Shown here in pieces: positions 2,499 through 63,837 of a stretch of DNA of 64,000 nt. Position 1 is the stretch's first letter, and each line of letters starts with the position of its first letter. Origin of the DNA: Escherichia phage EP1. The notes beneath the pieces are model-generated. The model searched no databases. It was not told the DNA's origin and was given only the letters and a program-made list of their open reading frames with translations. The stretch is from the sequence record OR892555.1; one strand, written 5' to 3'. A program made the position numbers and the translations under genes.

Positions 2499-3528
2499 TC
2501 ATAACAGGCTCCCAACCATATTTAGCAAAGGTGAAATCGTCTTTAGGGTTACGCTCTTGATAGGCAATCCAGAAGTGCTGGTGCATCAGTTCAAGAGGTG
2601 TTTTTGTAATCACCTGACCATCCCACGATTCATAAGTGTATGACTCTTTCTTAGCGTAGAGTCCATAGATAGCATCAAGACACTCTTTATAGGTCTCTTT
2701 ACCTTCCAGAGCGTTCATTACAGCAACTTTCCCTGCACCCTTAAGGCCAAAGTAGTTATCTGCGTTATCTCCTGCTACAGCTTGATAGCAGAGGAATTTA
2801 AAGCCTACACCAACAGTCTTTTTAGCTTTTGGCTTAGACTTGATAGGGCAATCCCAAATATCACCTACATTGCCATCTGCAATGAAAATCAGAGGGGCTT
2901 TCTCGTAAGTCATATCAATACAGTAAGTTCCTTCCGCTTGGCGAAGGTCTTTGTCAATGCTCATAAGAGCAGCCTTCTTACCCATCTTCTCAGCTTTTGC
3001 AATAACAATGGAGTCAGCTTCAAAGCCACCTTTGAGAAGCTTAAACTCAGGTCGTGACAGAAGATACTCACGACAAGCAACTAAATGCGTAGGGGTTACT
3101 GATTCTTTACGGTTACCTTGATACTGGTGTTCAAGACCTTTAATGTCTTTGTGTTTGTGTACACCTTTTTCAGTAAGGTATCCCATCCAAGTTCGCTCTT
3201 TACCAACAACCTTCAACCATTCCTGAAGAACTTGCTGAGTTGCCATAATAGCTTCTTTTTCACTCTTAGCTTCTTTCCAAGACTGTCTTTCCCATTCATC
3301 TTCATCGAATGCAAGACCAAGTTCCTCTGTCAGAACTCTCTGGTCAGATAGCCATTGATTAGCATCTTTAGCACTCTCAAAAGCATCAGACTCTTCAGCA
3401 GTGAGTTTATTCACATACTTGTACTTTGCTTTCTCAACGACACAGGCTCCCTTGTAAGCGATACTGTCAGAGTCAATAAAGACATGTGTCACAGTATCTG
3501 GGAGTTTTGTTAATGTGTACTTTTCCAT
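2488..3528 (-). CDS. 5'-3' exonuclease / RNase H (FEN family)
   Basis: Acidic clusters FIDSDSIAY, FEADSIVIAKAE, MSIDKDLRQ and GDNADNYFGLKGAGK resemble T4 RNase H/FEN active-site and H3TH regions; 346 aa. Confidence 0.6.
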   Translation of the reverse strand: MEKYTLTKLPDTVTHVFIDSDSIAYKGACVVEKAKYKYVNKLTAEESDAFESAKDANQWLSDQRVLTEELGLAFDEDEWERQSWKEAKSEKEAIMATQQVLQEWLKVVGKERTWMGYLTEKGVHKHKDIKGLEHQYQGNRKESVTPTHLVACREYLLSRPEFKLLKGGFEADSIVIAKAEKMGKKAALMSIDKDLRQAEGTYCIDMTYEKAPLIFIADGNVGDIWDCPIKSKPKAKKTVGVGFKFLCYQAVAGDNADNYFGLKGAGKVAVMNALEGKETYKECLDAIYGLYAKKESYTYESWDGQVITKTPLELMHQHFWIAYQERNPKDDFTFAKYGWEPVMNED

Positions 3529-41150: not shown

Positions 41151-42767
41151 TTAACGTCTAAGCCCCTCATAAGGATTGCTTCTCACTAAATCAGTGTGAG
41201 TACCCATAGAAGGTGGCTTGAATAGTTTTACTTCGTTGAGACTGTTGAAAGCATCGCTTGTGGCATCCACTTGGTCATCCTTGGTTTTCCCATCTCCACA
41301 AAAACCTTCCAGTTCTTGGAAATAGGCTTCGTTCCAGCTACCTCTAACGATTTTTACCAATCCTGCTTCAGAAGCAGCAGAGAAACCCGCAAAACGGGTA
41401 ACTTTATCTTTATTGGTTGGTTTGGCTCTTGCACGATAACCTTTCTCGGAAAGTTTTCTGATAAGAGATGTTGCGTAGGATTTACCAGCAGCGCCTGGGT
41501 CTTGAGGAATAAAGATACCAGTACGTTTGCCGTCGCTTTCAGCGGTCAAGTTAATTTGTGTCTCGACTCCAGAAGGTCTATCTCTAAATCTTACTACGTT
41601 CATGACATAATAGCAACCATCTTTTTTAGATTTAGCCATTCTAACACCTGCTGTCCAGTCAGGGTTAGGGTTAACTTCAGAAGGTAAAGTAGCCGCTAAG
41701 TCCCATGCTCTCACGTCAAATACGTCAGGTGGAACTGAATCAACAATCTCACACCATTGTCTTTGCCAATAGTTAGAACCTTCTGCACGAGCTTTCCAGT
41801 TACCAAATCTCAAACGTGCAACGTTTACTGGAGTGTTGTTTTCCAGCTTACCACGATACTTCGGTTCCAAGAAGTCAAGAATTGGGTTATCATCAATCGT
41901 ACCAGAGATAAAGGTATACGTCTGAGGAATCTCCAGAGGGAACATTTCAAGAATCTTGTCTCTATCCCAATCAGATACCATCACACCATCATTCATCACA
42001 TACCAACGAATACGACCACATTTCTCAGGGTCTGGATAACCTTCTTCGTCTAAGAATGGTTCTACCCAATCATAAATGAAGTGGTCTCTGTCTGGGTTCA
42101 TGGAAATCTTCATGTAAGAGTCACCTTCAGCACCAGAACGCAAACGAGTTTGCAGGTATGAAATCTGTGACGCAGAGAAGTGTGTACCTTCGTCAAAGTA
42201 AATTGCTGAGTATTCAATACCCTGATGACCTTCAGCGTGTTTTTCAAGTTCTAAGTAGGTAAACTTGATAGTAGCCCCAGAAGGGAATACAATGGTCATC
42301 TTCTGTTCATGTGGAACACCACCGAACTTACCAAAAAGCTTCTTCGCAGCAGGCCATAAACCACCTTGTAACTGTGTCGTGTTTCGACGGAAGTATACAG
42401 CGTTGTAGTTAGGGTCTTCGATAAATCTGAGTGAATCCATCAGCAAAGCAGCAGTCTTACCAGCACCAGCCGCACCACCATATAGAACTAAGTCAGCATT
42501 TGTGTTAAGAAATACTTCCTGAGAGCCGGGTTGTGGAGCTACATAGTTCTTATCAGTCATAAGTTTAAAGATAAGTCTTACTTGGTCTGGAGTGTATCTT
42601 AATAAAGTCAGAATCTGAGTAGGAAGGAATTTAGAGGGGTCTTTACCAAATGACTTGATAATATCTTTAACTTCATCAGAAAGCCCCAACTCTCCAGCTA
42701 GGACTTTCCTTACATCTTCCACTCGCTTCTGCTTAACAGCATTCAAATCCATTAAGCGCCTCCGCAA
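41151..42767 (-). CDS. terminase large subunit
   Basis: Walker A LYGGAAGAGKTAA; C-terminal RNase H-like nuclease region; 538 aa. Confidence 0.85.
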   Translation of the reverse strand: MRRRLMDLNAVKQKRVEDVRKVLAGELGLSDEVKDIIKSFGKDPSKFLPTQILTLLRYTPDQVRLIFKLMTDKNYVAPQPGSQEVFLNTNADLVLYGGAAGAGKTAALLMDSLRFIEDPNYNAVYFRRNTTQLQGGLWPAAKKLFGKFGGVPHEQKMTIVFPSGATIKFTYLELEKHAEGHQGIEYSAIYFDEGTHFSASQISYLQTRLRSGAEGDSYMKISMNPDRDHFIYDWVEPFLDEEGYPDPEKCGRIRWYVMNDGVMVSDWDRDKILEMFPLEIPQTYTFISGTIDDNPILDFLEPKYRGKLENNTPVNVARLRFGNWKARAEGSNYWQRQWCEIVDSVPPDVFDVRAWDLAATLPSEVNPNPDWTAGVRMAKSKKDGCYYVMNVVRFRDRPSGVETQINLTAESDGKRTGIFIPQDPGAAGKSYATSLIRKLSEKGYRARAKPTNKDKVTRFAGFSAASEAGLVKIVRGSWNEAYFQELEGFCGDGKTKDDQVDATSDAFNSLNEVKLFKPPSMGTHTDLVRSNPYEGLRR

Positions 42768-42773
42768 ATAGAA

Positions 42774-42974
42774 TTATTCAGCAGCAACTTCTTCGGCAGC
42801 CTTAACACCAAACTTTGCATCAACTGCATCTAACAGTTCATCCATATTGGTTTCTTTAATGTCTTTGCCAGTTGCATTAGCCAGACGGTGAGCAACACTG
42901 ATAATAGTGTTCTGCAACAGTTCGGCTCTTTTGTTTGCTTCATAAAGTTCTTTGTAAACATTAGTCTCGTTCAT
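42774..42974 (-). CDS. hypothetical small protein upstream of terminase
   Basis: ORF track with start trimmed to MNETNVYKEL; helical. Confidence 0.3.
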   Translation of the reverse strand: MNETNVYKELYEANKRAELLQNTIISVAHRLANATGKDIKETNMDELLDAVDAKFGVKAAEEVAAE

Positions 42975-43195
42975 TGTATTTCTCCAAAATAATAAGTGAA
43001 TGGCTCTCCTGAAAAAAGACGGTGCAGAGACCGTCAAGGAGAAACCACAATGTATGCCAGAGACATACTGTATAAGTCTTCTTATAAAGTATACATCTGT
43101 AAAAAAGCCCTGTCTAAAAATACTCTTCGGTAGCGAAAGGAAGAATACTCGTAGCAGGGCGTTATTATTTTATTTTGAGAGAGAGTAAAATAATT

Positions 43196-43271
43196 TGGAG
43201 CGTCGAAAGGGAGTCGAACCCTCATAATCCTGTTTTGCAGACAGGTACATAGCCATTTCTGTCATCGACGC
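43196..43271 (-). tRNA. tRNA-Cys (anticodon GCA)
   Basis: Acceptor halves 43200-43206/43265-43271 pair; T-arm AAGGG-AGTCGAA-CCCTC (reverse-complement view); anticodon loop CUGCAAA; CCA encoded. Confidence 0.7.
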
Positions 43272-43277
43272 ATTAAT

Positions 43278-43369
43278 TGGAGGAAGATACCAGACTTGAA
43301 CTGGTACGCCGATTTCTCGGTTACTGACAGTTTAGCAAACTGTCCCCTTACCTTTAGGGTTAATCTTCC
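43278..43369 (-). tRNA. tRNA-Ser (anticodon GCU), long variable arm
   Basis: 92 nt; acceptor GGAAGAT/ATCTTCC; anticodon stem ACAGT/ACTGT with loop UUGCUAA. Confidence 0.7.
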
Positions 43370-43371
43370 AA

Positions 43372-44103
43372 TTATTTATTCAAGGCATCCTTCATTTCTG
43401 GAGTTGCAATTGAATCAATCACGCCAGATTTACAGGAATCATCAAACCAGTCTGGTAAGATACCTGCAAGGAAACCATTAATATTTGTTTTCAAGTAATC
43501 AGCAATCAAAGCCGCTTCATCTGCAATCATCTGAGCCACTTCATTAGCATAGGCAGTAATCTTTGCCATACCATCATTAATCGCTGTAACAGCTTGTGTA
43601 GCGAGGTCAGAGATGGTTGCTAGTCCTTTATCAATTGCATCCTGTAAGTCGCTTAGAACGCTGTTTACGGCATCTATAGAGGTATTAATCAAATCCATAG
43701 CCTTGTTACCGTATTCAGTAGCAACTCCCATGATTCCACTAAACGGTGTACAACCAACTTGTTCACCTGCTGCTCCCATAACATTAGAGTAACCTTTAGC
43801 TACTTGCATACGTTGTGAAAACTCATCTACAGACTTCTGTCCATATTGAGTCAGTGTGTTAGTTGTCGTTGTAGTGCTTCCAAGGCTAGTTGAGAAGCTA
43901 CTTAACAAGGCTGTAGTCAAACCAGCAGCAATAAGTTTATCTTTTACTGTAGGGTCTGATACCGAGCTAATAGAGCTTACTAATGAAGTAGAAGCGGCAA
44001 CTGTACCACCAAGAACTGCTGCACCAGTAATAAGAGGGTTAGAGAACCCGTTACCGGATTTAAGGAGACTGAAAATCTCTTTACCTTGTCCTGTCATCTC
44101 TTT
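43372..44103 (-). CDS. Ser/Thr/Ala-rich protein embedded in the tRNA array
   Basis: ORF trimmed to MKEMTGQ so it does not overlap the adjacent tRNA; low-complexity S/T-rich centre. Confidence 0.4.
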   Translation of the reverse strand, partial: KEMTGQGKEIFSLLKSGNGFSNPLITGAAVLGGTVAASTSLVSSISSVSDPTVKDKLIAAGLTTALLSSFSTSLGSTTTTTNTLTQYGQKSVDEFSQRMQVAKGYSNVMGAAGEQVGCTPFSGIMGVATEYGNKAMDLINTSIDAVNSVLSDLQDAIDKGLATISDLATQAVTAINDGMAKITAYANEVAQMIADEAALIADYLKTNINGFLAGILPDWFDDSCKSGVIDSIATPEMKDALNK

Positions 44104-44122
44104 CATTATGCACCTATAAAAT

Positions 44123-44199
44123 TGGTAGCCCATCGGGATTTGAACCCTGTTCTCATGTTTTTCAGACACGCGCTTTAACCATATAAGCTAATTGAGCTA
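44123..44199 (-). tRNA. tRNA, tentative Phe (anticodon GAA), atypical T-stem and acceptor/D-arm linker
   Basis: T-loop ATTTGAA with 3-bp GGG/CCC stem; anticodon loop CUGAAAA; acceptor TAGCTCA/TGGGCTA pairs with one G-U. Confidence 0.45.
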
Positions 44200-44206
44200 T
44201 TAAAAT

Positions 44207-44283
44207 TGGGGTGACCTACGGGAATCGAACCCGTATAGACCATGTTCACAGCATGGGTCATTATCCATTTATGATAAGGCCAC
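44207..44283 (-). tRNA. tRNA-His (anticodon GUG)
   Basis: T-arm ACGGG-AATCGAA-CCCGT; anticodon stem CCATG/CATGG with loop CUGUGAA; D-stem TCAT/ATGA. Confidence 0.7.
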
Positions 44284-44314
44284 ATGTAAGGACTCTCGTA
44301 AGAACCCTTAGAGG

Positions 44315-44390
44315 TGGCAGCAGCGTAAGGATTTGAACCTTAATCTTTCAGCTTCAGAGGCTGGAGCATTGCCAGTTATGCTACACTGCT
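44315..44390 (-). tRNA. tRNA-Gln (anticodon CUG)
   Basis: T-arm TAAGG-ATTTGAA-CCTTA; anticodon loop CUCUGAA; D-stem GCAT/ATGC. Confidence 0.65.
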
Positions 44391-44397
44391 ATTAATT

Positions 44398-44468
44398 TGG
44401 TACTCCATATCGGATTCGAACCGATACATAACACAGATTTTAAGTCTGGCCTCTCTGCCAATTGGAGT
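44398..44468 (-). tRNA. tRNA-like gene, anticodon loop reads UAA (Leu-type) but D-arm appears truncated
   Basis: Perfect T-arm ATCGG-ATTCGAA-CCGAT and 6-bp acceptor; only about 10 nt available for the D-arm. Confidence 0.4.
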
Positions 44469-44478
44469 AATGGAGCAT

Positions 44479-44554
44479 TGGCGGGGGATGTTGGAATTGA
44501 ACCAACTTCTTCGATTTCAAAGACCGAGGTTTTAACCTTGTAAACTAATCCCCT
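44479..44554 (-). tRNA. tRNA-Gln (anticodon UUG)
   Basis: T-arm GTTGG-AATTGAA-CCAAC; anticodon loop CUUUGAA; D-stem GTTT/AAAC. Confidence 0.6.
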
Positions 44555-44562
44555 TTAAATCT

Positions 44563-45120
44563 TTACTTTCTTAGTGGATGAATAAAGAATGCCAACATAA
44601 TTCTTTCCCTTGAGAATGCTCTTTCTTCTGGGACAACACTTTTAAGTTTCCATCCAACATAAATTCTCCAGTAAAACTGTTTACCAAAGACTTTAATTGA
44701 TGGGATAAAAGCGAATAATCCCCAAGCATTCCTATTCCACATCAGGAGATAACCTGTCTGATTATCTTCAGGGTTAGAACTTACGTTGATATTACCTTTC
44801 CACTTAGTAACATCTTTTACATCTCTTCCTAATACATGGTAAGAGAAGTTATAAGCTTTGTTTCTCCAGAGCCACCCAACTCTCTGCATATAAACACCAA
44901 GCTTACCAATCTTTCTAATCTTAGCCCATCGCTCAACGTGACCTTTGTCACCGTCAATTGGGTTATCATAAGTTTCCATCCATCTGAATCCAAAAGGTAG
45001 ATGGCCTTTCTTCTCACTGTAGAATGGAACAACAAAAGGTGCTAAGATTACTGCTAAGATTGCTGCAAATGGCTCTAGCAAAGCTAGGAAAATCCATGAA
45101 GCATACTTCAAATATCTCAT
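44563..45120 (-). CDS. membrane protein embedded in the tRNA array
   Basis: ORF trimmed to MRYLKYAS to avoid tRNA overlap; N-terminal TM segment ASWIFLALLEPFAAILAVILAPFVV. Confidence 0.4.
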   Translation of the reverse strand: MRYLKYASWIFLALLEPFAAILAVILAPFVVPFYSEKKGHLPFGFRWMETYDNPIDGDKGHVERWAKIRKIGKLGVYMQRVGWLWRNKAYNFSYHVLGRDVKDVTKWKGNINVSSNPEDNQTGYLLMWNRNAWGLFAFIPSIKVFGKQFYWRIYVGWKLKSVVPEERAFSRERIMLAFFIHPLRK

Positions 45121-45140
45121 TTTAAATAGCCTCTTTAAAT

Positions 45141-45216
45141 TGGTGCAGAATAAGGGATTCGAACCCCTATTAACAGCTTCGTAGACTGTTGCTCTATCCA
45201 TTTGAACTAATCCTGC
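45141..45216 (-). tRNA. tRNA-Arg (anticodon ACG)
   Basis: T-arm AAGGG-ATTCGAA-CCCCT; anticodon loop CUACGAA. Confidence 0.6.
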
Positions 45217-45330
45217 TTCCCTACGAGAACACCATACAGTTTTTCACAAACTTTGTTTTTACGTCTGTTTAGGTATGACGCTCTAAACTTTTTTGCGATG
45301 GAGTTATTGCTCATAGTGCTCTCCTCAAAT

Positions 45331-45408
45331 TGGTGTTCCAAGACGGATTCGAACCGTCACTAATACAAGGTTTGAGCTTGCATCCTCTGCCAATTGGGAT
45401 ACTGGAAC
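45331..45408 (-). tRNA. tRNA with anticodon CAA (Leu-type) but short variable region
   Basis: Well-formed cloverleaf in reverse complement (acceptor GTTCCAG/TTGGAAC, D-loop AATTGGCAG, T-loop TTCGAAT); anticodon loop CUCAAAC; 78 nt. Confidence 0.55.
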
Positions 45409-45410
45409 AT

Positions 45411-45485
45411 TGGTACTCGCTGAAGGAATTGAACCTTCTTTACCAACTTGTAAGGATGGGGCTTTACCGTATAAACTAAGCGAGT
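45411..45485 (-). tRNA. tRNA-Val (anticodon UAC)
   Basis: Acceptor ACTCGCT/AGCGAGT perfect; T-arm GAAGG-AATTGAA-CCTTC; anticodon loop CUUACAA. Confidence 0.65.
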
Positions 45486-45490
45486 ATGAA

Positions 45491-45578
45491 AAGAGGTCTG
45501 AAGTTGTGCCGCTAACTCAACTCCGTGGAATTTGTTACGGTCTTCAGTTGACTCAAGCGGTCTTTCACTCGACCTCTG
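45491..45578. ncRNA. structured element with acceptor-like terminal stem but no T-loop (candidate small RNA or degenerate tRNA)
   Basis: AGAGGTC (45492-45498) pairs with GACCTCT (45571-45577); internal hairpin CTGAAG...CTTCAG; fills a tRNA-sized gap in the array. Confidence 0.3.
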
Positions 45579-45581
45579 AAA

Positions 45582-45658
45582 TGGTGCTGCTCACAGGACT
45601 CGAACCTGCATTTCCATCCTTACAAGGGATGTGTAATAGCCAATTATACGAAAGCAGC
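45582..45658 (-). tRNA. tRNA-Thr (anticodon UGU)
   Basis: T-arm ACAGG-ACTCGAA-CCTGC; anticodon stem CATCC/GGATG with loop CUUGUAA. Confidence 0.7.
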
Positions 45659-45664
45659 ATTGTT

Positions 45665-45739
45665 TGGAGCATCCAGAGGGAATCGAACCCTCAACCTCAG
45701 TTTGGAAGACTGTAATTTTCCCGTTTAAACTATGGATGC
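45665..45739 (-). tRNA. tRNA-Gly (anticodon UCC)
   Basis: Acceptor GCATCCA/TGGATGC perfect; T-arm GAGGG-AATCGAA-CCCTC; anticodon loop CUUCCAA. Confidence 0.65.
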
Positions 45740-45745
45740 ACTAAT

Positions 45746-45821
45746 TGGTGGAGAAGCAGGGAATTGAACCCTGTACTTAAGTTTGCAAAACTTATGTTTT
45801 AACCATGTAAACTACATCCCC
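45746..45821 (-). tRNA. tRNA-Ala (anticodon UGC)
   Basis: T-arm CAGGG-AATTGAA-CCCTG; anticodon stem TAAGT/ACTTA with loop UUUGCAA. Confidence 0.65.
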
Positions 45822-45827
45822 AATGTT

Positions 45828-45903
45828 TGGTACAGGTGGAGGGAATTGAACCCATCATCTTACTGATTAAGAGTCAGCCGCATAACCATTTTGCTACACC
45901 TGC
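45828..45903 (-). tRNA. tRNA-Lys (anticodon CUU), tentative
   Basis: T-loop AATTGAA with GGG/CCC stem; anticodon loop CUCUUAA; acceptor ACAGGTG/CACCTGC. Confidence 0.55.
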
Positions 45904-45910
45904 ATTAATT

Positions 45911-45988
45911 TGGTAGGAGACAAGGGATTCGAACCCTCAAACACCAACTTCTAAGGATGGTAGGTTTACCAATTACCGTCAATCTCCC
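45911..45988 (-). tRNA. tRNA with anticodon UAG (Leu-type) but short variable region, structure partly unresolved
   Basis: T-arm AAGGG-ATTCGAA-CCCTC; acceptor with two G-U pairs; anticodon loop CUUAGAA; D-loop AATTGGTAA. Confidence 0.45.
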
Positions 45989-46052
45989 ATTAAATCTTTG
46001 TAGAGAACTGCTAAGACGCCAAAGCAACAATGGTATCAAATGCCTTAACAAT

Positions 46053-46080
46053 TCTCTAAAAAGACCTAACTGGTCTTTGC
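46053..46080 (-). terminator. hairpin, possible minus-strand terminator inside the tRNA array (weak)
   Basis: AAAGACC-taact-GGTCTTT stem followed by short U-run on the minus strand. Confidence 0.3.
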
Positions 46081-46229
46081 ATAGTCTTGTTTAATCCGGT
46101 GACTATAACCTTTGGAGAGCTTGATATTATCTCTTCTCCGTGACACCTACTAGGTGCTTTGTTGTGCGTGTACGACAATACACGAGGGAAACCGAACGCT
46201 GTACCAGAGCGTGGGCTTAAATCTCATTA

Positions 46230-46319
46230 GGCGGTAGATAAAGGAGTCGAACCCTCACCGTATCACTACAATGGCAATTGTTTTCAAGACAATTTGGCTT
46301 CCATTAGCCGCTATCTACC
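46230..46319 (-). tRNA. tRNA-Ser (anticodon UGA), long variable arm
   Basis: Acceptor GGTAGAT/ATCTACC; anticodon stem ATTGT/ACAAT with loop CUUGAAA; about 87 nt. Confidence 0.65.
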
Positions 46320-46332
46320 CCTAATAAGACTG

Positions 46333-46737
46333 TTAAACCTCTAACAGTCCTGCATGAACTTTCCTATGACAGTTAGAACACAGTACAACACATTTTCTAA
46401 CTTCTCTCTTAATAGTCCCTCTAGAGTAAGTCTTTAAATTGCTAGGTTCAAAGTCTTTTTCATTTGGGTCTAAATGGTGGAAGTCTAATGCTACTGGTTC
46501 AGATTCACCACAAACTCTGCATTTGCAGATTCTTTTGTATCGGTTAAGAAACTCTCTGTTTCTTTTTCTGTCAGCTACCGCCCTAATTTTCCTTTTAGCT
46601 TTATAAGTTGGGTCTTCTTGATACTTCTTAGAAGAGTATTTGGATTTGCAATCTTTGCATACTGACTGGTATCCATTACCACGCTTATGAAAACAACTTA
46701 AAGGTTTTTCTTGTGAGCATTTTCTACAAAGTTTCAT
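46333..46737 (-). CDS. HNH homing endonuclease inserted in the tRNA array
   Basis: Cys-rich zinc-binding N-terminus; HNH core DFHHLDPNEK ... CSNCHRKVH. Confidence 0.65.
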   Translation of the reverse strand: MKLCRKCSQEKPLSCFHKRGNGYQSVCKDCKSKYSSKKYQEDPTYKAKRKIRAVADRKRNREFLNRYKRICKCRVCGESEPVALDFHHLDPNEKDFEPSNLKTYSRGTIKREVRKCVVLCSNCHRKVHAGLLEV

Positions 46738-46751
46738 ACAAGTACCTATTC

Positions 46752-46822
46752 TGGCAGGGGTGTAGAGATTCGAACTCTAATCAAGAATTTTGGAGACTCT
46801 ATTGCTGCCTTAGCTCACCCCT
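46752..46822 (-). tRNA. tRNA-Trp (anticodon CCA), tentative
   Basis: Acceptor AGGGGTG/CACCCCT perfect; T-arm TAGAG-ATTCGAA-CTCTA; anticodon loop CUCCAAA; short D-arm. Confidence 0.6.
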
Positions 46823-46993
46823 ATTAACACTATAATTCGAAGCTTACCGTATTGTCACAACACTGTCAAGCCTCTTCTCAGATTATTTACATGTTCTGGA
46901 AAACATGAGATACAGACCACCTCCTTATGAAGTTGACTCATCTGAATCAACACGGAGACCCGCTAAGGTCGTCTAAGTAATCTGCTAACTAAT

Positions 46994-47070
46994 TGGCACA
47001 CCCTACAGGGCTCGAACCTGTAACTCAGTGCTTAGAAGGCACTTGCTCTATCCAATTGAACTAAGGGTGC
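46994..47070 (-). tRNA. tRNA-Arg (anticodon UCU)
   Basis: T-arm ACAGG-GCTCGAA-CCTGT; anticodon stem AGTGC/GCACT with loop CUUCUAA. Confidence 0.7.
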
Positions 47071-47320
47071 ATTCTTATCTTTAAAGGCTCTCTTAGAAAA
47101 CCCTTAAAGATGCCCACCTTATTAATCATACCGTGGGCGAGTACGCCAAATTCTTTGATGAGGGGTTGGAAGACCTCACTGGTGTTTAGCCTATTAAGCT
47201 ACTGCCAGAAAAACATTATCGTTTGCATTTATTTTAGTTTGCAAAAATAGACGCTACGCTAACGAAAACTAAGGTTACTATAAAGTGGTCACATCTGAAT
47301 GTCAACAACTTTATCGAATT

Positions 47321-47396
47321 TGGTAGTGGTAGCAGGAATCGAACCTGCGATGTTCGGTTATCAGCCGAGTGTTATGACCGTCTTAACTATACCACC
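47321..47396 (-). tRNA. tRNA-Ile (anticodon GAU)
   Basis: T-arm GCAGG-AATCGAA-CCTGC; anticodon loop CUGAUAA. Confidence 0.6.
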
Positions 47397-47398
47397 AT

Positions 47399-47475
47399 TG
47401 GAGGTTCAGATGGGATTCGAACCCACATTCATAGGGCTTATGAAACCCTTGCATTACCTTATCTGCGACTGAACC
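47399..47475 (-). tRNA. tRNA-Met (anticodon CAU), G-C-rich anticodon stem
   Basis: Acceptor GGTTCAG/CTGAACC perfect; T-arm ATGGG-ATTCGAA-CCCAC; anticodon stem AGGGC/ACCCT with loop UUCAUAA. Confidence 0.65.
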
Positions 47476-47554
47476 ATAATAAGTTGCCCTTTGGAGAAGA
47501 ACTATTGAGTGGGTGTTTCCAGCCGCGCAGGTGTTCTTCAGTTAAGGGCGAATT
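47476..47554. ncRNA. structured element with acceptor-like terminal stem but no T-loop (candidate small RNA)
   Basis: TTGCCCT (about 47484-47490) pairs with AGGGCGA (about 47544-47550); shares a TTCAGTT motif with the element at 45491. Confidence 0.25.
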
Positions 47555-47630
47555 TGGTAGGAGTGGAGGGATTCGAACCCGTCGCCTGTCAGATTAAAAG
47601 TCTGCCGCATCACCATTCTGCTACACTCCC
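47555..47630 (-). tRNA. tRNA-Lys (anticodon UUU)
   Basis: T-loop ATTCGAA with GGG/CCC stem; anticodon stem TCAGA/TCTGC with loop CUUUUAA. Confidence 0.65.
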
Positions 47631-47775
47631 ATTAAATCATCTTTGCAGTAACCTACGCAAACCTTGCTAAAGGGTTTGTAGAGTCATTTCCTATTAAGCT
47701 AATCTAGAATCATGCTAAGGAAATTCATCGGCACTCATGGGACGACATTTAGCTCCATAAGCCACTGCAAAGAGG

Positions 47776-47907
47776 ATTACCAGACCGTTGTTTTATCTTA
47801 AGTGCTCCCATTACACCAACACGCCGTAACGTGTGAAGGAATCGAACCTTCGCCTTTTCTTTACCAGAGAAATAGATTGTTTAATACTTGCTGTAAACGG
47901 TCTTCTG
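47776..47907 (-). ncRNA. tRNA-like RNA lacking a canonical acceptor stem, enclosed by a long-range stem (candidate Y-RNA-like or pseudo-tRNA)
   Basis: Minus strand reads AGACCGTT...[anticodon-like arm TTTCT-CTGGTAA-AGAAA][T-arm GAAGG-TTCGATT-CCTTC][hairpin ACACG-TTACGG-CGTGT]...AACGGTCT; ends pair over 8 bp. Confidence 0.4.
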
Positions 47908-47919
47908 TAAATTTGTTGA

Positions 47920-47993
47920 GCCAGACCAAGTTTTAAATTATTCAAATTAATTGGCTTGAAATTTTTAAGTTGGCTTGCTGAATTTGGTCTTCT
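47920..47993 (-). repeat. hairpin spacer module, copy B1 (CAGAAGACCAA ... TTGGTCTGG)
   Basis: AGACCAA (47922-47928) complementary to TTGGTCT (47983-47989); conserved flanks shared with copies at 47779, 48388, 48544. Confidence 0.5.
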
Positions 47994-48055
47994 GCTCCTT
48001 TAAAGAATACTCGTAAGAACTCTTTAAGGGATGGGCTAAAAAGCCCTCTCAAATT

Positions 48056-48133
48056 TGGCGGTTACGAAGGGATTCGAACCCTCATCATCTCCCGTGACAG
48101 GGGAGTATTTTAACCAGATTAAACTACATAACC
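48056..48133 (-). tRNA. tRNA-Asp (anticodon GUC)
   Basis: T-arm AAGGG-ATTCGAA-CCCTC; anticodon stem CTCCC/GGGAG with loop CUGUCAC. Confidence 0.7.
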
Positions 48134-48139
48134 TTTGTT

Positions 48140-48227
48140 TGGTGCGCCGTGAAGGAGTCGAACCTACCGAGTCATAATGACAAGTGATTTACAGTCACCA
48201 CCGCTTCCATCTACGGGATAACGACGC
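48140..48227 (-). tRNA. tRNA-Tyr (anticodon GUA), long variable arm
   Basis: 88 nt; T-arm GAAGG-AGTCGAA-CCTAC; anticodon loop CUGUAAA. Confidence 0.65.
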
Positions 48228-48297
48228 ATTTTATTCTATTCAGGCTAAGGACTTGCACCTTACAAATCGGTGAGCATTACGCTTCTCTCCCAAATCT

Positions 48298-48374
48298 TGG
48301 CGGTGAGTTAGGGATTCGAACCCTATACCATTCGGTTAACAGCCGACCGCACATGCCTTATGTGCTTCCTCACC
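48298..48374 (-). tRNA. tRNA-Asn (anticodon GUU)
   Basis: T-arm TAGGG-ATTCGAA-CCCTA; anticodon loop CUGUUAA. Confidence 0.7.
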
Positions 48375-48387
48375 ATGTTTAGTATTG

Positions 48388-48449
48388 CCAGACCGTATCT
48401 TTTCATTTTTTCCTATAAAAATTTTGAGATTGCTGTAAACGGTCTTCTG
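48388..48449 (-). repeat. hairpin spacer module, copy A2 (CAGAAGACCGT ... ACGGTCTGG)
   Basis: AGACCGT (48390-48396) complementary to ACGGTCT (48439-48445); lies between tRNA-Asn and the CAU tRNA. Confidence 0.5.
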
Positions 48450-48455
48450 CAAATT

Positions 48456-48532
48456 TGGAGGCGGGTGTTGGAGTCGAACCAACCGTTACCATGCTAATGA
48501 GACATGTGAGACACCCTTTCTCTATACCCGCG
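48456..48532 (-). tRNA. tRNA with anticodon CAU (Met, fMet or Ile-lysidine type)
   Basis: T-arm GTTGG-AGTCGAA-CCAAC; D-stem GAGA/TCTC; anticodon loop CUCAUUA; position 1-72 mismatched. Confidence 0.6.
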
Positions 48533-48543
48533 ATTCTTAATGA

Positions 48544-48607
48544 CCAGACCAAGTTTTATTTTCTATAAGCGAAGAAAGTTTTTTAACTTGCTGAATTTGG
48601 TCTTCTG
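48544..48607 (-). repeat. hairpin spacer module, copy B2 (CAGAAGACCAA ... TTGGTCTGG)
   Basis: AGACCAA (48546-48552) complementary to TTGGTCT (48597-48603). Confidence 0.5.
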
Positions 48608-48614
48608 TCAAATT

Positions 48615-48689
48615 TGGAGTCGTAGACGGGATTCGAACCCGCGAGCAACTGATTGAAGGTCAGGTGGCTAACCATTTGCCTTCTACGAC
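48615..48689 (-). tRNA. tRNA-Glu (anticodon UUC), tentative (C at position 33)
   Basis: Acceptor GTCGTAG/CTACGAC perfect; T-arm ACGGG-ATTCGAA-CCCGC; anticodon loop CCUUCAA. Confidence 0.55.
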
Positions 48690-48696
48690 ATTAATT

Positions 48697-48773
48697 TGGT
48701 CTCCGTTGAGGGAGTTGAACCCTCGACCCCTTGCTCCCAAAGCAAGTGCTCTGCCAAACTGAGCTAAACGGAA
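48697..48773 (-). tRNA. tRNA-Pro (anticodon UGG)
   Basis: T-arm GAGGG-AGTTGAA-CCCTC; anticodon stem CTTGC/GCAAG with loop UUUGGGA. Confidence 0.7.
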
Positions 48774-48940
48774 ATAATTCTTTTCAAACTCTATGTAACC
48801 ACTTTAACATTATTTTTTAGTGGTTGTCAAGAACTTTTTTAAAATATTTTTCAGTATCTTAGAAAAACTCTCGATTTCGTTTTTATGTAGAACATATTAA
48901 AGGGTATCAAACAATTTGTCAATACCCTTTTTAAAACTTT

Positions 48941-58146: not shown

Positions 58147-58826
58147 AGAGTCTTATGGGACACCTTCGCAGGATGAATTGGACGAACTTGAAAGATACGG
58201 TTCTCCTTCGGAAGAAGAAAAAGATTCAATCTGATGAATGGTCAAAACTTACTAAGAAGTGTTTTCAGGATTTGATAGATATGGAAAAACAATTTGAGTT
58301 AGAGAGAAAGTACTTGGTACTGAGTTTGGAAGATATTGATAACTATCTTTCACCAGAATGCAGAGACCAGCTTCAACAAATTGTAATGTCACTGAGGCAT
58401 TCAAGAGAACTTGTAGATGGTAAAGAGCCACTTGAAGGTATCTTTGTTAAGAACTCTTATCCGTTCTATAAAGATACTTTGCAGAAACTTGAAATGTACG
58501 TTAAACAGCAGAACCGTAAAGAGTTCACTATGGTTTCTCTTGGTGGACAACAAATGCTTGTTATGGAGGATATCAATCCTAAACGAGTTAACAGAGGTGT
58601 TTGTATCAAGGTCACAGGTAAAGAAGAATTTGTTGATTATGACATACTCAGACATATTATAGATGGTTTGGGTGCTGTACTGAACATGAATGAATACCAT
58701 ATTAGTTCACACCCAATTAAGGGTGACCAGATAATGATTCAGGTAAGAGAACGTCATAATGGGTTCACACACTTCTTCCAGACTTCTAAAACTTCATTGC
58801 AAGCTATGCTTAGTGAAGTGATGTAA
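58143..58826 (+). CDS. hypothetical protein (227 aa)
   Basis: ORF track; last gene of the plus-strand block. Confidence 0.4.
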   Translation: MKSLMGHLRRMNWTNLKDTVLLRKKKKIQSDEWSKLTKKCFQDLIDMEKQFELERKYLVLSLEDIDNYLSPECRDQLQQIVMSLRHSRELVDGKEPLEGIFVKNSYPFYKDTLQKLEMYVKQQNRKEFTMVSLGGQQMLVMEDINPKRVNRGVCIKVTGKEEFVDYDILRHIIDGLGAVLNMNEYHISSHPIKGDQIMIQVRERHNGFTHFFQTSKTSLQAMLSEVM

Positions 58827-58833
58827 AACTCTA

Positions 58834-58882
58834 CAGCCCCTTAAAATGGATTCGATAGAATCTATCTCATAGGGGCTTTTTA
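58834..58882 (+). terminator. rho-independent terminator with large structured loop
   Basis: AGCCCCT (58834-58840) pairs with AGGGGCT (58870-58876) then TTTTT; loop holds GATTCGATAGAATCTATC. Confidence 0.5.
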
Positions 58883-60420
58883 TTGAGTAAAATAATTTTT
58901 ATAAAATTTGGGATTCACTACGTTCATCTTGGGTCACCATATCATGTGATAAAATATCTACCCCTCTTAACAGTCTACTTAATCTTACTCTCTATATAGT
59001 TATATAGTACTATATAGTATCTTAGTCTCTTAACAGTGAGTCTCTATAGCACTCTGTATAGCCCTTCTAAATAGCCCTCTATAAAGCCCTCTAATCAATC
59101 CTCTTCCAAACCTATACAATCCCTTAACCATCTCTTCATAGCTCCTTAGAAGCCCCTATACCCATCTTAATCTCTAGGTAAAAGATAGTACCCTCTATAG
59201 GGTGTTCACTAGGTTCTACTAACCCTCTATATAGACTGTTTTAGCTAACTAAACAGGTATTACCTTCTAAGGCTTATCCTACAAGGTCTAACACGGTACT
59301 AACAAGGTATCTTATAAGCCTGTATTTACCTGTTTTATACAGAATACTATATAGATATTTATGCAACTATTAAAATTTTTATAAAATAGAACTGTCAAGT
59401 CACTTTTTAGGGTCTTGAGAGCAACTCAAAAATATCTGTCTAGGGTGTATATCTGCTTGGTAGCCCTTAACAGCCTTGTAACATACCCTTTGCAAAATTT
59501 TAAAATATCATTAACAATTTCTTTACAACTCTATCAATCTCTTAACATCTCTTCAAAGGTCTTAACAGATTCTTAACAGGACTAACAAGGGTGTAACAAG
59601 TCTCTAACAAGTGCTACATAGACTTTACAGATTCTTAACAGATGACTAACAAGAGCTAACAAGTTAATTTTAAAGGGTTATTTTGTTAAGATAATTAACA
59701 AGTTCCTAACAAGGCTTTAAAGCTTTTAACATACTGTTAACATGGTCACTATCTCTTCTCTTATCGTTCCCTTAACTTCTTAGTGATTCTCTAAACATCC
59801 TCTTAAAAGCTCTCTATAGCTCTATACAGCCTCTTTTAAGCCCCTTGTAAGGTATCTATAGCCCAAGTAACTACAAAGGGCTTTATAGGGCTTTACAGAG
59901 GCTTTAAAGGGTATGCCAAGTTAGCTAACAAGAGTTTAACAAGGTCTTAACAATGATTTAACATACCCCTAACAAGGGTAACTATTCAGGAGTTGTTAAG
60001 AATTTGTTAAGAAAATGTTAAGGGGGCTAGCATTTACGTAACTTTTAAGCCACTTTTAAGCAACTTTATAGCCCCTATAACATACTTTTAAGACACTAAC
60101 AAGCCCTTTTTAGTAGTTCACAAGGTGACTAACGAGATGATAAAGCTTGATACCTTATAAGATTCTTTTAAGGCCATAGAAAGCTCTATAAAGGGCTTTT
60201 AAGAGTGGGTTAATATGATTGCTTAAGTTAGGTTGATAAGCTGTTATAGGGCTTTATAGAGCGTTTTAGAGGGTTGCCCTTCCCTTTGGGTTATGGGCTT
60301 ATATTTTAGGGAAAGAATAGTTGATTTGATAAGAGAATATAGAGTAAGCTATAGAGTTATTGTTCTAAATGTATGAGATAGATTCTATCGAATCTGTGAT
60401 ATGAGTCTGTATAGACGTAA
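58883..60420. repeat. ORF-free region of degenerate short repeats (CTAACAAG, CTTAACAG, CTCTATAG, GGCTTTATAG)
   Basis: No ORF of 60 aa or more in any frame across about 1.6 kb; stop-containing 8-10 bp motifs recur dozens of times. Confidence 0.55.
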
Positions 60421-60496
60421 AAAAGCCCCTATGCGATAGATTCTATGAAGGTAATTCATTACCTAAATCACTATCGAATCCATAGAAAGGGGCTGT
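60421..60496 (-). terminator. rho-independent terminator, mirror image of the 58834 terminator
   Basis: AGCCCCT (60424-60430) pairs with AGGGGCT (60488-60494); U-run on minus strand (plus-strand AAAA at 60421-60424); loop holds GATAGATTCTATG and CTATCGAATC. Confidence 0.45.
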
Positions 60497-60537
60497 TAAG
60501 GTATCTGGGGCTATTTTAGCCCCGTTGCGGCGTCTCG

Positions 60538-60786
60538 TTAGTTATGACCGTCCTTGTCATAGTAAAGAGAAATGATTTTATCGTTCCAATAGTGCCAATG
60601 ATTACCATCTTTCACCGCCTCTTGGATAGCTGCAATCCAAAAATCCGATTCAGGGTTATAATCCTTGACAATCTGGCTAACAAGGCTTTTCACCATATCA
60701 AAAGCACTATCTGTACTGATAATGTCAAATTTAACGTCCAGTGAGTAAAAACCATATTCGTTAACAGTTGCGCGGATAGTTGCCAT
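60538..60786 (-). CDS. hypothetical protein (82 aa)
   Basis: ORF track; preceded by conserved leader. Confidence 0.4.
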   Translation of the reverse strand: MATIRATVNEYGFYSLDVKFDIISTDSAFDMVKSLVSQIVKDYNPESDFWIAAIQEAVKDGNHWHYWNDKIISLYYDKDGHN

Positions 60787-61896: not shown

Positions 61897-62238
61897 TTAG
61901 CTTATAAAGATTTTTTCAGGCTTGACGTAGTTCATTTTTTGGCCTTTAAGTAAATCACTCCAGATTAAAGCGGCAATGTGACCATAACCAAATTCACGTA
62001 GTGCTTTCATCGTGTTGACTTTTGTTTCAAATCGTGTTGCGTAGTATTCACTGTTAAGGGTTGTTTTGTTCCCTTCATTGTCTGTATGAATGATTTGCAT
62101 CACATGAAACGGGCTAACATCCTCTCCGCGATTCCATTGCTCAAAGTATTTTAAACACTGCATAGGCGACATATTATCACTTACTCGTGTAGACCATGAC
62201 GAATTTTCTTTATCGGTAATTACGGTTACATGTGCCAT
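61897..62238 (-). CDS. hypothetical protein (113 aa)
   Basis: ORF track; conserved leader. Confidence 0.4.
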   Translation of the reverse strand: MAHVTVITDKENSSWSTRVSDNMSPMQCLKYFEQWNRGEDVSPFHVMQIIHTDNEGNKTTLNSEYYATRFETKVNTMKALREFGYGHIAALIWSDLLKGQKMNYVKPEKIFIS

Positions 62239-62260
62239 CTTTGAATCTCCAGTTTAGGAA
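62239..62260 (-). promoter_or_regulatory. conserved leader CCTAAACTGGAG (copy 4)
   Basis: Minus strand AGCTTTCCTAAACTGGAGATTCAAAGATG; upstream GCCCCAGATAAAGAG box shared with copy 6. Confidence 0.5.
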
Positions 62261-62314
62261 AGCTCTTTATCTGGGGCTTATGGTATCAAGCTTTTAAGCC
62301 CCTTGTAAAGTACT

Positions 62315-62551
62315 TTATTTGTAAATCTCTAAAAATTCATCTTCATTAACATTTTCGTAGTATTCTGCGTTTTCGTCTTCACCTTGTAAGACATAACAGC
62401 CCATTCTAGACGATTTCGGGTATTCTTGTCTAGCAATATTGCAAGCTTCTACCGCGTTTTGTTTAGTTCCTTCAAAGGATTCTAAAACCCCATAATGGCA
62501 ATTATTAGCCCCAGAGCATACAGCAAGCATGAGATAGATTGTAGTTAACAT
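62315..62551 (-). CDS. small protein with signal-peptide-like N-terminus (78 aa)
   Basis: MLTTIYLMLAVCSGANNC hydrophobic N-terminus; lacks the conserved leader, has a GC hairpin upstream instead. Confidence 0.4.
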   Translation of the reverse strand: MLTTIYLMLAVCSGANNCHYGVLESFEGTKQNAVEACNIARQEYPKSSRMGCYVLQGEDENAEYYENVNEDEFLEIYK

Positions 62552-63257: not shown

Positions 63258-63662
63258 TTAAAGTTCTGCGTAAATTGCATCACAGATATCACGAAAATCA
63301 TAGCTTGTTAAGTTACGTTGTAACCATGTTGCGAAAAAATCAGCTATTGCAAAATTTGCATCATACTCAACAGACAACCACACTTTTACAGCAAATCGAA
63401 ACATTTTCAAGTCAAGTTCTTTATTCATTACTTTTGATTTGCCCAACATATCAACCATTTCATATTGTGCTCCGTCAAGTGTAACACCTGAAGCAACATT
63501 TGCAAGTGAATTTTTTACGTTTTCAACGTCTAAGATTGCACCTTGAATCTTTCCAATAATGTTGTGTAGTGTTTCATCTGGTGCTGCTGATGTAATTACG
63601 TTGATGCGGTTAACGGTCAAACGTGCTTTTAGGATTGCAGTGTCGCGATTGTTAATAGCCAT
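63258..63662 (-). CDS. hypothetical protein (134 aa)
   Basis: ORF track; conserved leader. Confidence 0.4.
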   Translation of the reverse strand: MAINNRDTAILKARLTVNRINVITSAAPDETLHNIIGKIQGAILDVENVKNSLANVASGVTLDGAQYEMVDMLGKSKVMNKELDLKMFRFAVKVWLSVEYDANFAIADFFATWLQRNLTSYDFRDICDAIYAEL

Positions 63663-63682
63663 TTTTGAATCTCCAGTTTAGG
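63663..63682 (-). promoter_or_regulatory. conserved leader CCTAAACTGGAG (copy 6)
   Basis: Minus strand CACTAACCTAAACTGGAGATTCAAAAATG; upstream GCCCCAGATAAAGAG box. Confidence 0.5.
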
Positions 63683-63837
63683 TTAGTGATAAAATCTCTT
63701 TATCTGGGGCTATACTAGCAAACTTTATAACCCCATGTAAAGCAATTTTTAGACTAAATTTAACTTTTTACCGTTAACAATGATGTAACTTACACCACTA
63801 TTGCTGTAAACATCTTGATAGATTCTGCGTAACTTGC

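Follow-up and report, generated by a model that had tools for sequence, protein, structure and literature searches.

In Escherichia phage EP1 (sequence record OR892555.1), one interval raises the question of why a phage should keep a long piece of DNA that holds no gene. In the 64,000-nucleotide stretch of this genome that we analysed, hereafter the window, positions 58827-60537 are the sole long gap free of open reading frames (ORFs) that does not contain an RNA gene; the remaining long ORF-free gaps (44170-48940) belong to a cluster of 24 tRNA genes on the minus strand (43196-48773). By comparing the interval with its homologs in phages whose virion ends have been mapped, we arrived at the reading that it is a genome terminus with a direct terminal repeat (DTR), and that the phased short words it contains are putative binding sites, most plausibly for the recognition of DNA during packaging. 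We assign this reading a probability of about 0.8.

An initial annotation of this DNA, made from the letters alone, had described a 1.6-kb region without any ORF of at least 60 codons, built from recurring short words and lying between convergent genes. The lack of such ORFs was borne out when both strands were checked, with 53 amino acids as the maximum on either of them. The region is thus ORF-free as described, but its length is 1711 bp. The flanks are convergent as well, with a plus-strand ORF that ends at 58826 and a minus-strand ORF (60538-60786) that ends at 60538.

Mapped virion ends of related phages fall within the interval

The region matched 255 phage records, nearly all of which belong to Felix O1-type phages (Ounavirinae) of Escherichia, Salmonella, Shigella and Citrobacter. 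The best DNA match was Suspvirus CHB7 (91%), and a flanking gene is 99.7% identical to its counterpart in Suspvirus EcSzw-2. Judged by these matches, the phage of the window is Felix O1-like, belongs to the Ounavirinae and is closest to Suspvirus. The alignment used throughout comprises ten phages, including that of the window, from the three genera Suspvirus, Mooglevirus and Felixounavirus.

That the region codes for small proteins over its whole length, or is an assembly artefact, is hardly credible. Some annotators have called one to four hypothetical proteins here, and several public assemblies break inside the region. However, no ORF of at least 30 amino acids is common to all ten aligned phages, and the best-kept small ORF, of 31 amino acids, is found in 5 of them. 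The region is shared by more than 250 independent genomes and measures 1674-1798 bp in the ten, which disposes of the artefact that the initial annotation had named as a way in which it could fail, and breaks in assemblies are expected from doubled read coverage over a terminal repeat.

The position of the virion ends is given by several relatives. In Pr103Blw, a 'short direct terminal repeat' is annotated at record positions 1-581 and 87841-88421, and the paper on this phage reports a 581-bp DTR derived with PhageTerm; comparing the end copies, we found exact 581-bp repeats both in Pr103Blw and in D4. The record of HP1 (Mooglevirus) has an annotated 570-bp repeat at its start, and both boundaries of this repeat are those of Pr103Blw to the nucleotide. 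In Pr103Blw, D4 and HP1 alike, the first letters of the repeat, GGTAGCCCTTAACA..., directly follow ...TGTATATCTGCTT, and its last letters are ...ATGTTAAGGGGGC. These boundaries align to window positions 59458/59459 and 60027/60028, which lie in invariant or near-invariant blocks of the ten-phage alignment: the left junction block, TGTATATCTGCTT/GGTAGCCCT (the slash marks the cut), is invariant in 10 of 10 phages, and the right one, AATGTTAAGGGGGC/TAGC, is nearly so. The DTR projected onto the window, 59459-60027, therefore measures 569 bp. The records of Pr103Blw, D4, E9, CRP22, HP1 and SeKF_63 all begin at the equivalent of the 60027 boundary, and the NBEco005 record ends at the left boundary (the equivalent of 59459). 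By homology, then, the ends are fixed and non-permuted, the boundaries from three laboratories (Pr103Blw, D4/E9 and HP1) agreeing to the nucleotide.

The projection was checked against repeat lengths in relatives. For the Moogleviruses it predicts 570 bp, compared with 570 bp annotated in HP1, and for UAB_Phi87 it predicts 614 bp, compared with 608 bp obtained in the wet lab by Bal31 digestion and run-off sequencing (PMC4837284). The projected 569 bp is also in range of the 613-bp DTR that PhageTerm gave for Ro111lw (PMC6454146), and in the genome paper on Felix O1 itself, a mismatch between the size on gels and the length of the sequence had already led to the inference of short terminal repeats (PMC3185647). 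When the ends of the mio, SUSP2, fBSPA4 and UAB_Phi87 records were searched for terminal repeats, none were found, these records being either re-oriented or repeat-free. Erwinia phage Fifi106 was left out, its record being an older circular version that starts in coding DNA.

Because the mapped ends of relatives fall inside its homolog, the ORF-free interval is, by homology, the concatemer junction at which the ends of linear virion DNA meet. Among the candidate roles that the initial annotation had listed, a packaging or genome-terminus region thereby received strong support, from the mapped ends of three relatives and from the invariant junctions. The terminus looks internal because the window is a collapsed, circular-style map, in which the DTR is predicted to be present once and from which it would be restored at both virion ends. 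In the orientation of the window, virion DNA would start at 59459, run rightward via 60537, continue round the genome and back through 58826, and end at 60027. From these coordinates, each virion end would consist of ~1.1-1.2 kb of gene-free DNA, with the unique flank to the left of the DTR lying just inside the right-end copy and the right flank just inside the left-end copy. At either virion end, transcription of the nearest gene runs outward. With 59459 and 60027 as the probable physical ends, the genome can be correctly oriented and the duplicated 569 bp restored.

Recurring words share a single frame and are locally phased

The recurring words that the initial annotation had pointed out are real, although their copy numbers had been put slightly too high: CTAACAAG occurs 9 times in the interval, not ~12 times, compared with 0.1 copies expected from the remainder of the window. 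TAACAAG is present 12 times, exclusively on the plus strand, and forward and reverse copies number 6 and 1 for CTTAACAG, 3 and 1 for CTCTATAG, 2 and 1 for GGCTTTATAG, and 6 and 2 for TTTTAAG. A single frame, CT-N4-AG, accommodates all the recurring words. It occurs 66 times in the 1711 bp, compared with 11.7 ± 3.3 times in first-order Markov simulations and with 8.9 copies per kb elsewhere in the window; counted per 300 bp, the interval reaches 17 copies and any other stretch of the window at most 8.

The spacing of these words also departs from chance. Of the 65 intervals between neighbouring CT-N4-AG copies, 22 measure 10 or 11 bp, with 3.5 expected (P ~1e-12), and 13 of the 15 small arrays that Tandem Repeats Finder reported in the interval have periods of 10-12 bp. 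Forward TAACA was found 27 times in the region, 21 of these inside the DTR, where half of the 20 intervals between copies are exactly 11 bp and most are 11 bp or a multiple of it.

Dense direct repeats at a spacing of one turn also suit a replication origin. The region would then be, or include, an origin with the words as iterons and the AT-rich stretch of the left flank (~59340-59400; the 100-bp window from 59300 has a GC content of 0.23) as the unwinding element, a role that is compatible with a terminus and that we regard as possible but unlikely. Iteron-type origins such as lambda ori and P1 oriR consist of phased direct repeats beside an AT-rich stretch, and this much of the iteron field suggested in the initial annotation is present in EP1. 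Furthermore, a T7-type primase/helicase, a DNA polymerase and an exonuclease are annotated in a relative, and in the T7 record phiOL and phiOR are annotated as promoters next to the repeat arrays; the secondary origins of T7 adjoin these end-proximal arrays and are associated with the two promoters. The other marks of such an origin were absent, however. Scanning of the region returned no DnaA box on either strand and no Chi site, and no recognisable initiator gene lies beside the region, the six flanking proteins having no Pfam match or other functional lead and belonging to PHROG families of unknown function. The words, at 7-8 bp, are far shorter and more numerous than typical iterons, which measure ~17-22 bp, and on these grounds the region would not count as an iteron origin by the usual criteria; an origin function may still coexist with the terminus. 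Shifts in GC skew track gene orientation and are uninformative for an origin, and no experimental origin mapping was found in the literature on Felix O1-type phages.

The left flank also contains two copies of an AT-only 14-bp word, AATTTTTATAAAAT, at 58894-58907 and 59374-59387, 480 bp apart, and a relative of this word, AAAATTTTAAAATATC, is located at ~59495 in the most conserved block of the DTR. An unwinding or a bending element are possibilities for AT words of this type.

Conservation suggests a protein-binding array and peaks at the cut sites

Per-column agreement with the window base was mostly 75-95% over the region, whereas the adjacent 227-amino-acid protein has only ~54% identity to most relatives. 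Within the DTR, the TAACA/TGTTA cores stood out with 96% agreement and 88% invariant columns, compared with 80% and 53% for the other DTR columns (permutation p < 0.0005). When the distinct gaps in the alignment were sorted by length, 1-bp gaps aside, lengths of 11-12 bp were the commonest (8 of 60), and lengths of 22-23 bp and 32-33 bp were each found 3 times. Taken together, the conservation of the words, the freedom of the spacers and the indels that preserve helical phasing lead us to infer a DNA array of protein-binding sites. The protein-binding landing pad of the initial annotation is thus supported indirectly, through the conserved cores, the 11-bp spacing and the indels near multiples of 11 bp.

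Because the word cores are kept while spacers vary and indels come in multiples of 11 bp, the pattern is one of DNA rather than of an RNA helix. This bears on a further candidate role, a non-coding RNA locus with, for example, a sigma-70-like site at 59478-59506 (GTAACA-17-TAAAAT; weak, 9/12) as its promoter. The TAAAAT element of this site lies inside a block that is invariant in the ten phages, and a weak terminator-like hairpin is present on the plus strand at 60269-60282. Nevertheless, promoter-like sites are no more frequent in the region than in shuffled sequences (8 compared with 8.3 ± 3.0), an Rfam scan gave two chance-level matches only (E 0.24 and 0.56), which fell well short of the gathering scores, and the inward-facing terminators on both sides shield the region from read-through transcription. 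We therefore abandoned the RNA locus proposed in the initial annotation as very unlikely.

The same signature of core conservation and phasing would arise if the arrays bound a protein with a task outside packaging, such as protection or tethering of the ends after injection, the control of ejection, or the titration of a host protein by a decoy. The ~1.1-1.2 kb of gene-free DNA at each virion end and the outward transcription of the end genes would fit such a protein. No tested host-factor consensus was matched, however, apart from a single, unconvincing match to the IHF consensus at 59532, the word of which is not kept in relatives. Moreover, conservation is tightest exactly at the two cut sites, so that packaging fits better than other binding roles, and we judge the latter to be distinctly improbable.

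At the left junction, the 22-bp TGTATATCTGCTTGGTAGCCCT is invariant in the ten phages, and the following base is A in SUSP1. At the right end, an array of inverted TGTTAAG words and the junction itself are nearly invariant. Read inward, the two ends start alike, with GGTAGCCCTTAACA... and GCCCCCTTAACA..., and the junctions share the inverted motif TAGCCC..TTAACA. This motif holds in the aligned phages of Escherichia, Salmonella, Shigella and Citrobacter; because it is unclear in Erwinia phage phiEa21-4, we treat it as an observation only.

A model for packaging at the junction

In T7-type phages, each concatemer junction holds one copy of the repeat; cleavage by terminase takes place at the boundaries of this copy, which becomes duplicated as the DNA is packaged. 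In EP1, terminase would likewise cut the concatemer at the two junctions, and the DTR would then be duplicated in the T7 fashion. A phage protein would assemble along the phased TAACA and CT-N4-AG words and position both cuts, and the bound protein would bend or wrap the DNA, bringing terminase to the junctions.

The gene for the large terminase is located at 41151-42767 on the minus strand (PHROG 979; Pfam Terminase_6N and 6C). The large terminase of Felix O1-type phages has been placed in a clade of terminal-repeat phages (PMC4837284), a placement that we take as published. A small terminase subunit was not recognisable in the phage family of the window, and the Felix O1 genome paper names the large subunit only (PMC3185647). 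Just upstream of the large terminase gene, an ORF at 42774-43037 (minus strand) encodes a 66-amino-acid protein from an internal ATG (PHROG 4397, unknown function), for which Pfam and PHROGs gave no functional lead. Candidates for the recognition protein could be this small protein or the large terminase itself, through its N-terminal part. We tentatively suggest, with rather less than even confidence, that the phased arrays are the platform of a new packaging-recognition protein that coats one face of ~1.5 kb of DNA and directs two cuts 569 bp apart. If true, packaging sites would here be recognised in a new way, and the site might also serve as an end-proximal origin of the T7 style.

Several points weigh against the reading of the interval as a terminus with sites for packaging recognition. 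The termini of EP1 are projected from relatives, not measured; the PhageTerm boundaries are computational, and the sole wet-lab length (608 bp) is 6 bp off the projection. The words are putative binding sites, and they may serve replication, end protection or DNA ejection rather than packaging. To our knowledge, the comparable repeat arrays of T7 have no established function, and for this reason the T7 analogy supplies no mechanism. In a Fourier analysis of the whole region, the peaks at about 10-11 bp did not exceed those of coding windows; because the periodicity of the region as a whole is unexceptional, the phasing is local to individual arrays, and our claim of helical phasing is built on neighbour spacing, not on Fourier peaks. 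Finally, the regional maximum of dyad symmetry (200-bp arms) is centred at 60002.5, ~25 bp from the right cut, with a z of 6.1 and above all sampled background centres, but the half-palindromic nature of the CT-N4-AG frame may have raised this score.

Comparison with known termini and packaging sites

The closest known systems are the DTRs of Felix O1-like phages (UAB_Phi87, Ro111lw, Pr103Blw and HP1), the sequence of which is homologous to that of the window. Their junctions are nucleotide-identical to those of the window, the projected length is comparable, and the site between converging gene blocks is the same.

Dunn and Studier reportedly introduced the names SRL and SRR in 1983 for the heptamer arrays by the terminal repeat of T7. 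In the T7 sequence, which we checked, the terminal repeat measures 160 bp, and heptamers of the CCTAAAG type lie 13 bp apart in a single orientation. The interval in EP1 resembles this junction in that a short exact terminal repeat lies in gene-free DNA, with many regularly spaced A/T-rich words that end in AG (CCTAAAG in T7, CT-N4-AG in the window) next to and inside the repeat, and both phage groups have T7-type replication genes. In contrast to T7, to which there is no sequence homology, the words of the window are 10-11 bp apart and include inverted sets, the repeat is 3.5 times longer, and the region is ~3 times larger. The early promoters of T7 read inward from the left end, whereas the end genes of the window phage read outward, and the latter phage has a large terminase of the T4 type. 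Arrays of the SRL/SRR type were thus rejected on word, spacing, orientation and homology, and the resemblance is one of layout only.

The pac hexamers of P1 and the pacL/pacR sites of SPP1 are phased short repeats that bind the small terminase subunit, in phages with headful packaging and permuted ends. As at these pac sites, clusters of short words flank a predicted terminase cut site in EP1. A headful pac site was rejected, since the ends here, judging from the repeats of relatives, are fixed and exact.

The identity of the region is not new, as the literature already reports the ~0.6-kb DTR of Felix O1-type phages, and a few GenBank records mark where it lies. In the open-access papers that were searched, published descriptions of this DTR give its length alone, and the region is not discussed in the Felix O1 genome paper, the comparative paper on Felixounavirus or the paper on the Bas63 knockout library. 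We found no prior account in this literature of the 1.7-kb gene-free setting or the CT-N4-AG frame, though an earlier description is possible, nor of phased TAACA arrays with core conservation and 11-bp-multiple indels, of the invariant junction sequences, or of the conservation of the layout as far as Erwinia and Pectobacterium phages. Felix O1-type phages are widely used in Salmonella typing, biocontrol and therapy, and knowledge of their packaging signal would aid the engineering of such phages and the assessment of transduction risk. The invariant junctions and the selectively conserved TAACA arrays offer targets for mutation and a bait for the packaging-recognition protein.

Layout of the interval

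The features of the interval are collected in Table 1. The two unique flanks and the DTR between them are bounded by terminators.

Table 1. Features of the ORF-free interval of phage EP1 in window coordinates; a slash within a sequence marks the cut
Feature	Coordinates	Strand	Description
Intrinsic terminator of the plus-strand block	58835..58884	+	stem AGCCCCU...AGGGGCU, then UUUUAUU; -23.6 kcal/mol, z -4.6
Left unique flank, 573 bp	58886..59458		arrays of CT(C/A)TATAG and CTATAAAG, AGCCC spacers
Left junction, cut 59458/59459	59446..59472		TGTATATCTGCTT/GGTAGCCCTTAACA; cut the same in Pr103Blw and HP1
Predicted DTR, 569 bp	59459..60027		boundaries projected from relatives
Deepest-conserved DTR block	59478..59541	+	CCTTTGCAAAATTTTAAAATATC...; matches in phiEa21-4 and Wc4-1; holds the weak sigma-70-like site and the IHF match
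Main TAACA(A/G)(G) array	59561..59745	+	CTTAACAG/CTAACAAG words (slash: alternatives); one orientation, mostly 11 bp apart
Central DTR block	59800..59912		CTCTATAG and GGCTTTATAG words; tandem-repeat periods 10-11 bp
Convergent arrays, right end of DTR	59925..60022		inverted pair I10, tandem repeats, spacing
Right junction, cut 60027/60028	60011..60042		GAAAATGTTAAGGGGGC/TAGCATTTACGTAAC; nearly invariant in 10 phages
Right unique flank, 392 bp	60028..60419		arrays of CTTTTAAG, CTTTATAG and GGGCTTTATAGAG; 14 CT-N4-AG copies
Tandem intrinsic terminators of the minus-strand small-gene array	60418..60523	-	fold -44 kcal/mol, z -5.3

Between each flank and the genes next to it stands a terminator that faces inward. 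No shuffled sequence folded as stably as the terminator on the left edge. On the right edge, a small hairpin (60523-60507) is followed by a large hairpin (60494-60424) and then by a U run. A pattern scan for promoters and terminators, which gave no enrichment, had missed these edge terminators because their loops are long, and RNA folding recovered both. They are inverted copies of one sequence family (pairs I2, I5 and I8), and in the relative Michonne terminators are annotated at both edges of the region.

The left flank holds 22 copies of CT-N4-AG and 17 of TATAG/CTATA, and its per-column agreement with the window base ranges from 68 to 96% in 40-bp bins. The right flank is partly the inverse of the left one, with inverted pair I3 joining 59077-59121 to 60217-60261, and contains tandem rows with periods of 11 and 22 at 60033-60097. 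The central DTR block forms the left arm of an imperfect palindrome, the other arm of which is located at 60149-60205 (inverted pairs I1, 57 nucleotides, 70%, and I6, 35 nucleotides, 74%). The DTR closes on its right side with five TAACA words (59926-59970) and then the inverted TGTTAAG words at 59994, 60005 and 60016. The spacing within each of these two sets is 11 bp, and the last TGTTAAG ends 5 bp short of the right terminus. Folded as single-stranded DNA, the DTR is moderately more stable than shuffled sequences (z -2.9), which is insufficient to argue for a hairpin intermediate.

The layout extends to Erwinia and Pectobacterium phages

A sensitive search added Erwinia phage phiEa21-4 (Kolesnikvirus) and Pectobacterium phage Wc4-1 to the homologs of the region. 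Their matches (window 59446-59572 with 70% identity for phiEa21-4 and 59488-59541 with 84% for Wc4-1) lie within 59446-59572, a segment that takes in the left junction together with the initial 110 bp of the DTR. The ORF-free region of phiEa21-4 measures 1.2 kb and has the same layout as that of the window: it opens with TGTATATCTGCTT, continues with a run of TTAACA and with inverted TGTTAA words, and reaches a sequence like the right junction, AAATGTAAAAGTGGC/TAAC. The DTR projected for this phage is ~439 bp. In its right flank (2760-3070), phiEa21-4 has (C/T)TTAGAAG words with 12 TTAGAA cores, mostly 10-12 bp apart, at the place where the window has CTTTTAAG and CTTTATAG. Because the flank word differs and the layout is the same, the layout is older than the individual flank words.

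Public records and other observations

The terminal repeat accounts for the frequent breaks and misassembly of public Felix O1-type assemblies at this place. The record of EcSzw-2, the closest public relative (MH791400.1, marked UNVERIFIED), stops at the equivalent of window position 58858 and resumes at that of 59794; the equivalent of 58859-59793 is missing, and a displaced copy of 58900-59136 is found further in. This assembly appears to have been broken or scrambled by the terminal-repeat region. The records of ekra, ESCO50, BPS17L1 and BPS17W1 also break inside the region, at arbitrary points. We attribute such breaks to the read coverage, which the terminal repeat doubles.

The 147-kb record of Staphylococcus phage SA1 (GU169904.1) contains a homolog of a Felix O1-type flanking gene at 137082-137663 and is also among the DNA matches to the region itself, which suggests that this record is chimeric or contaminated.

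In the small-gene array on the minus strand, two at least partly intergenic stretches of ~85-95 bp, 62233-62316 and 63658-63749, match one and the same stretch of EcSzw-2. They may correspond to the repeated promoter or terminator cassettes that have been reported between early genes of Felix O1.

Finally, GATC does not occur in the 64 kb of the window, compared with ~230 copies expected from base composition. CTAG is depleted in the window as well (71 compared with 230), and CCGG, CGCG, GCGC and GGCC are strongly depleted too. The absence of GATC suggests strong selection against host systems that target this sequence, such as restriction enzymes or Dam/MutH/SeqA.

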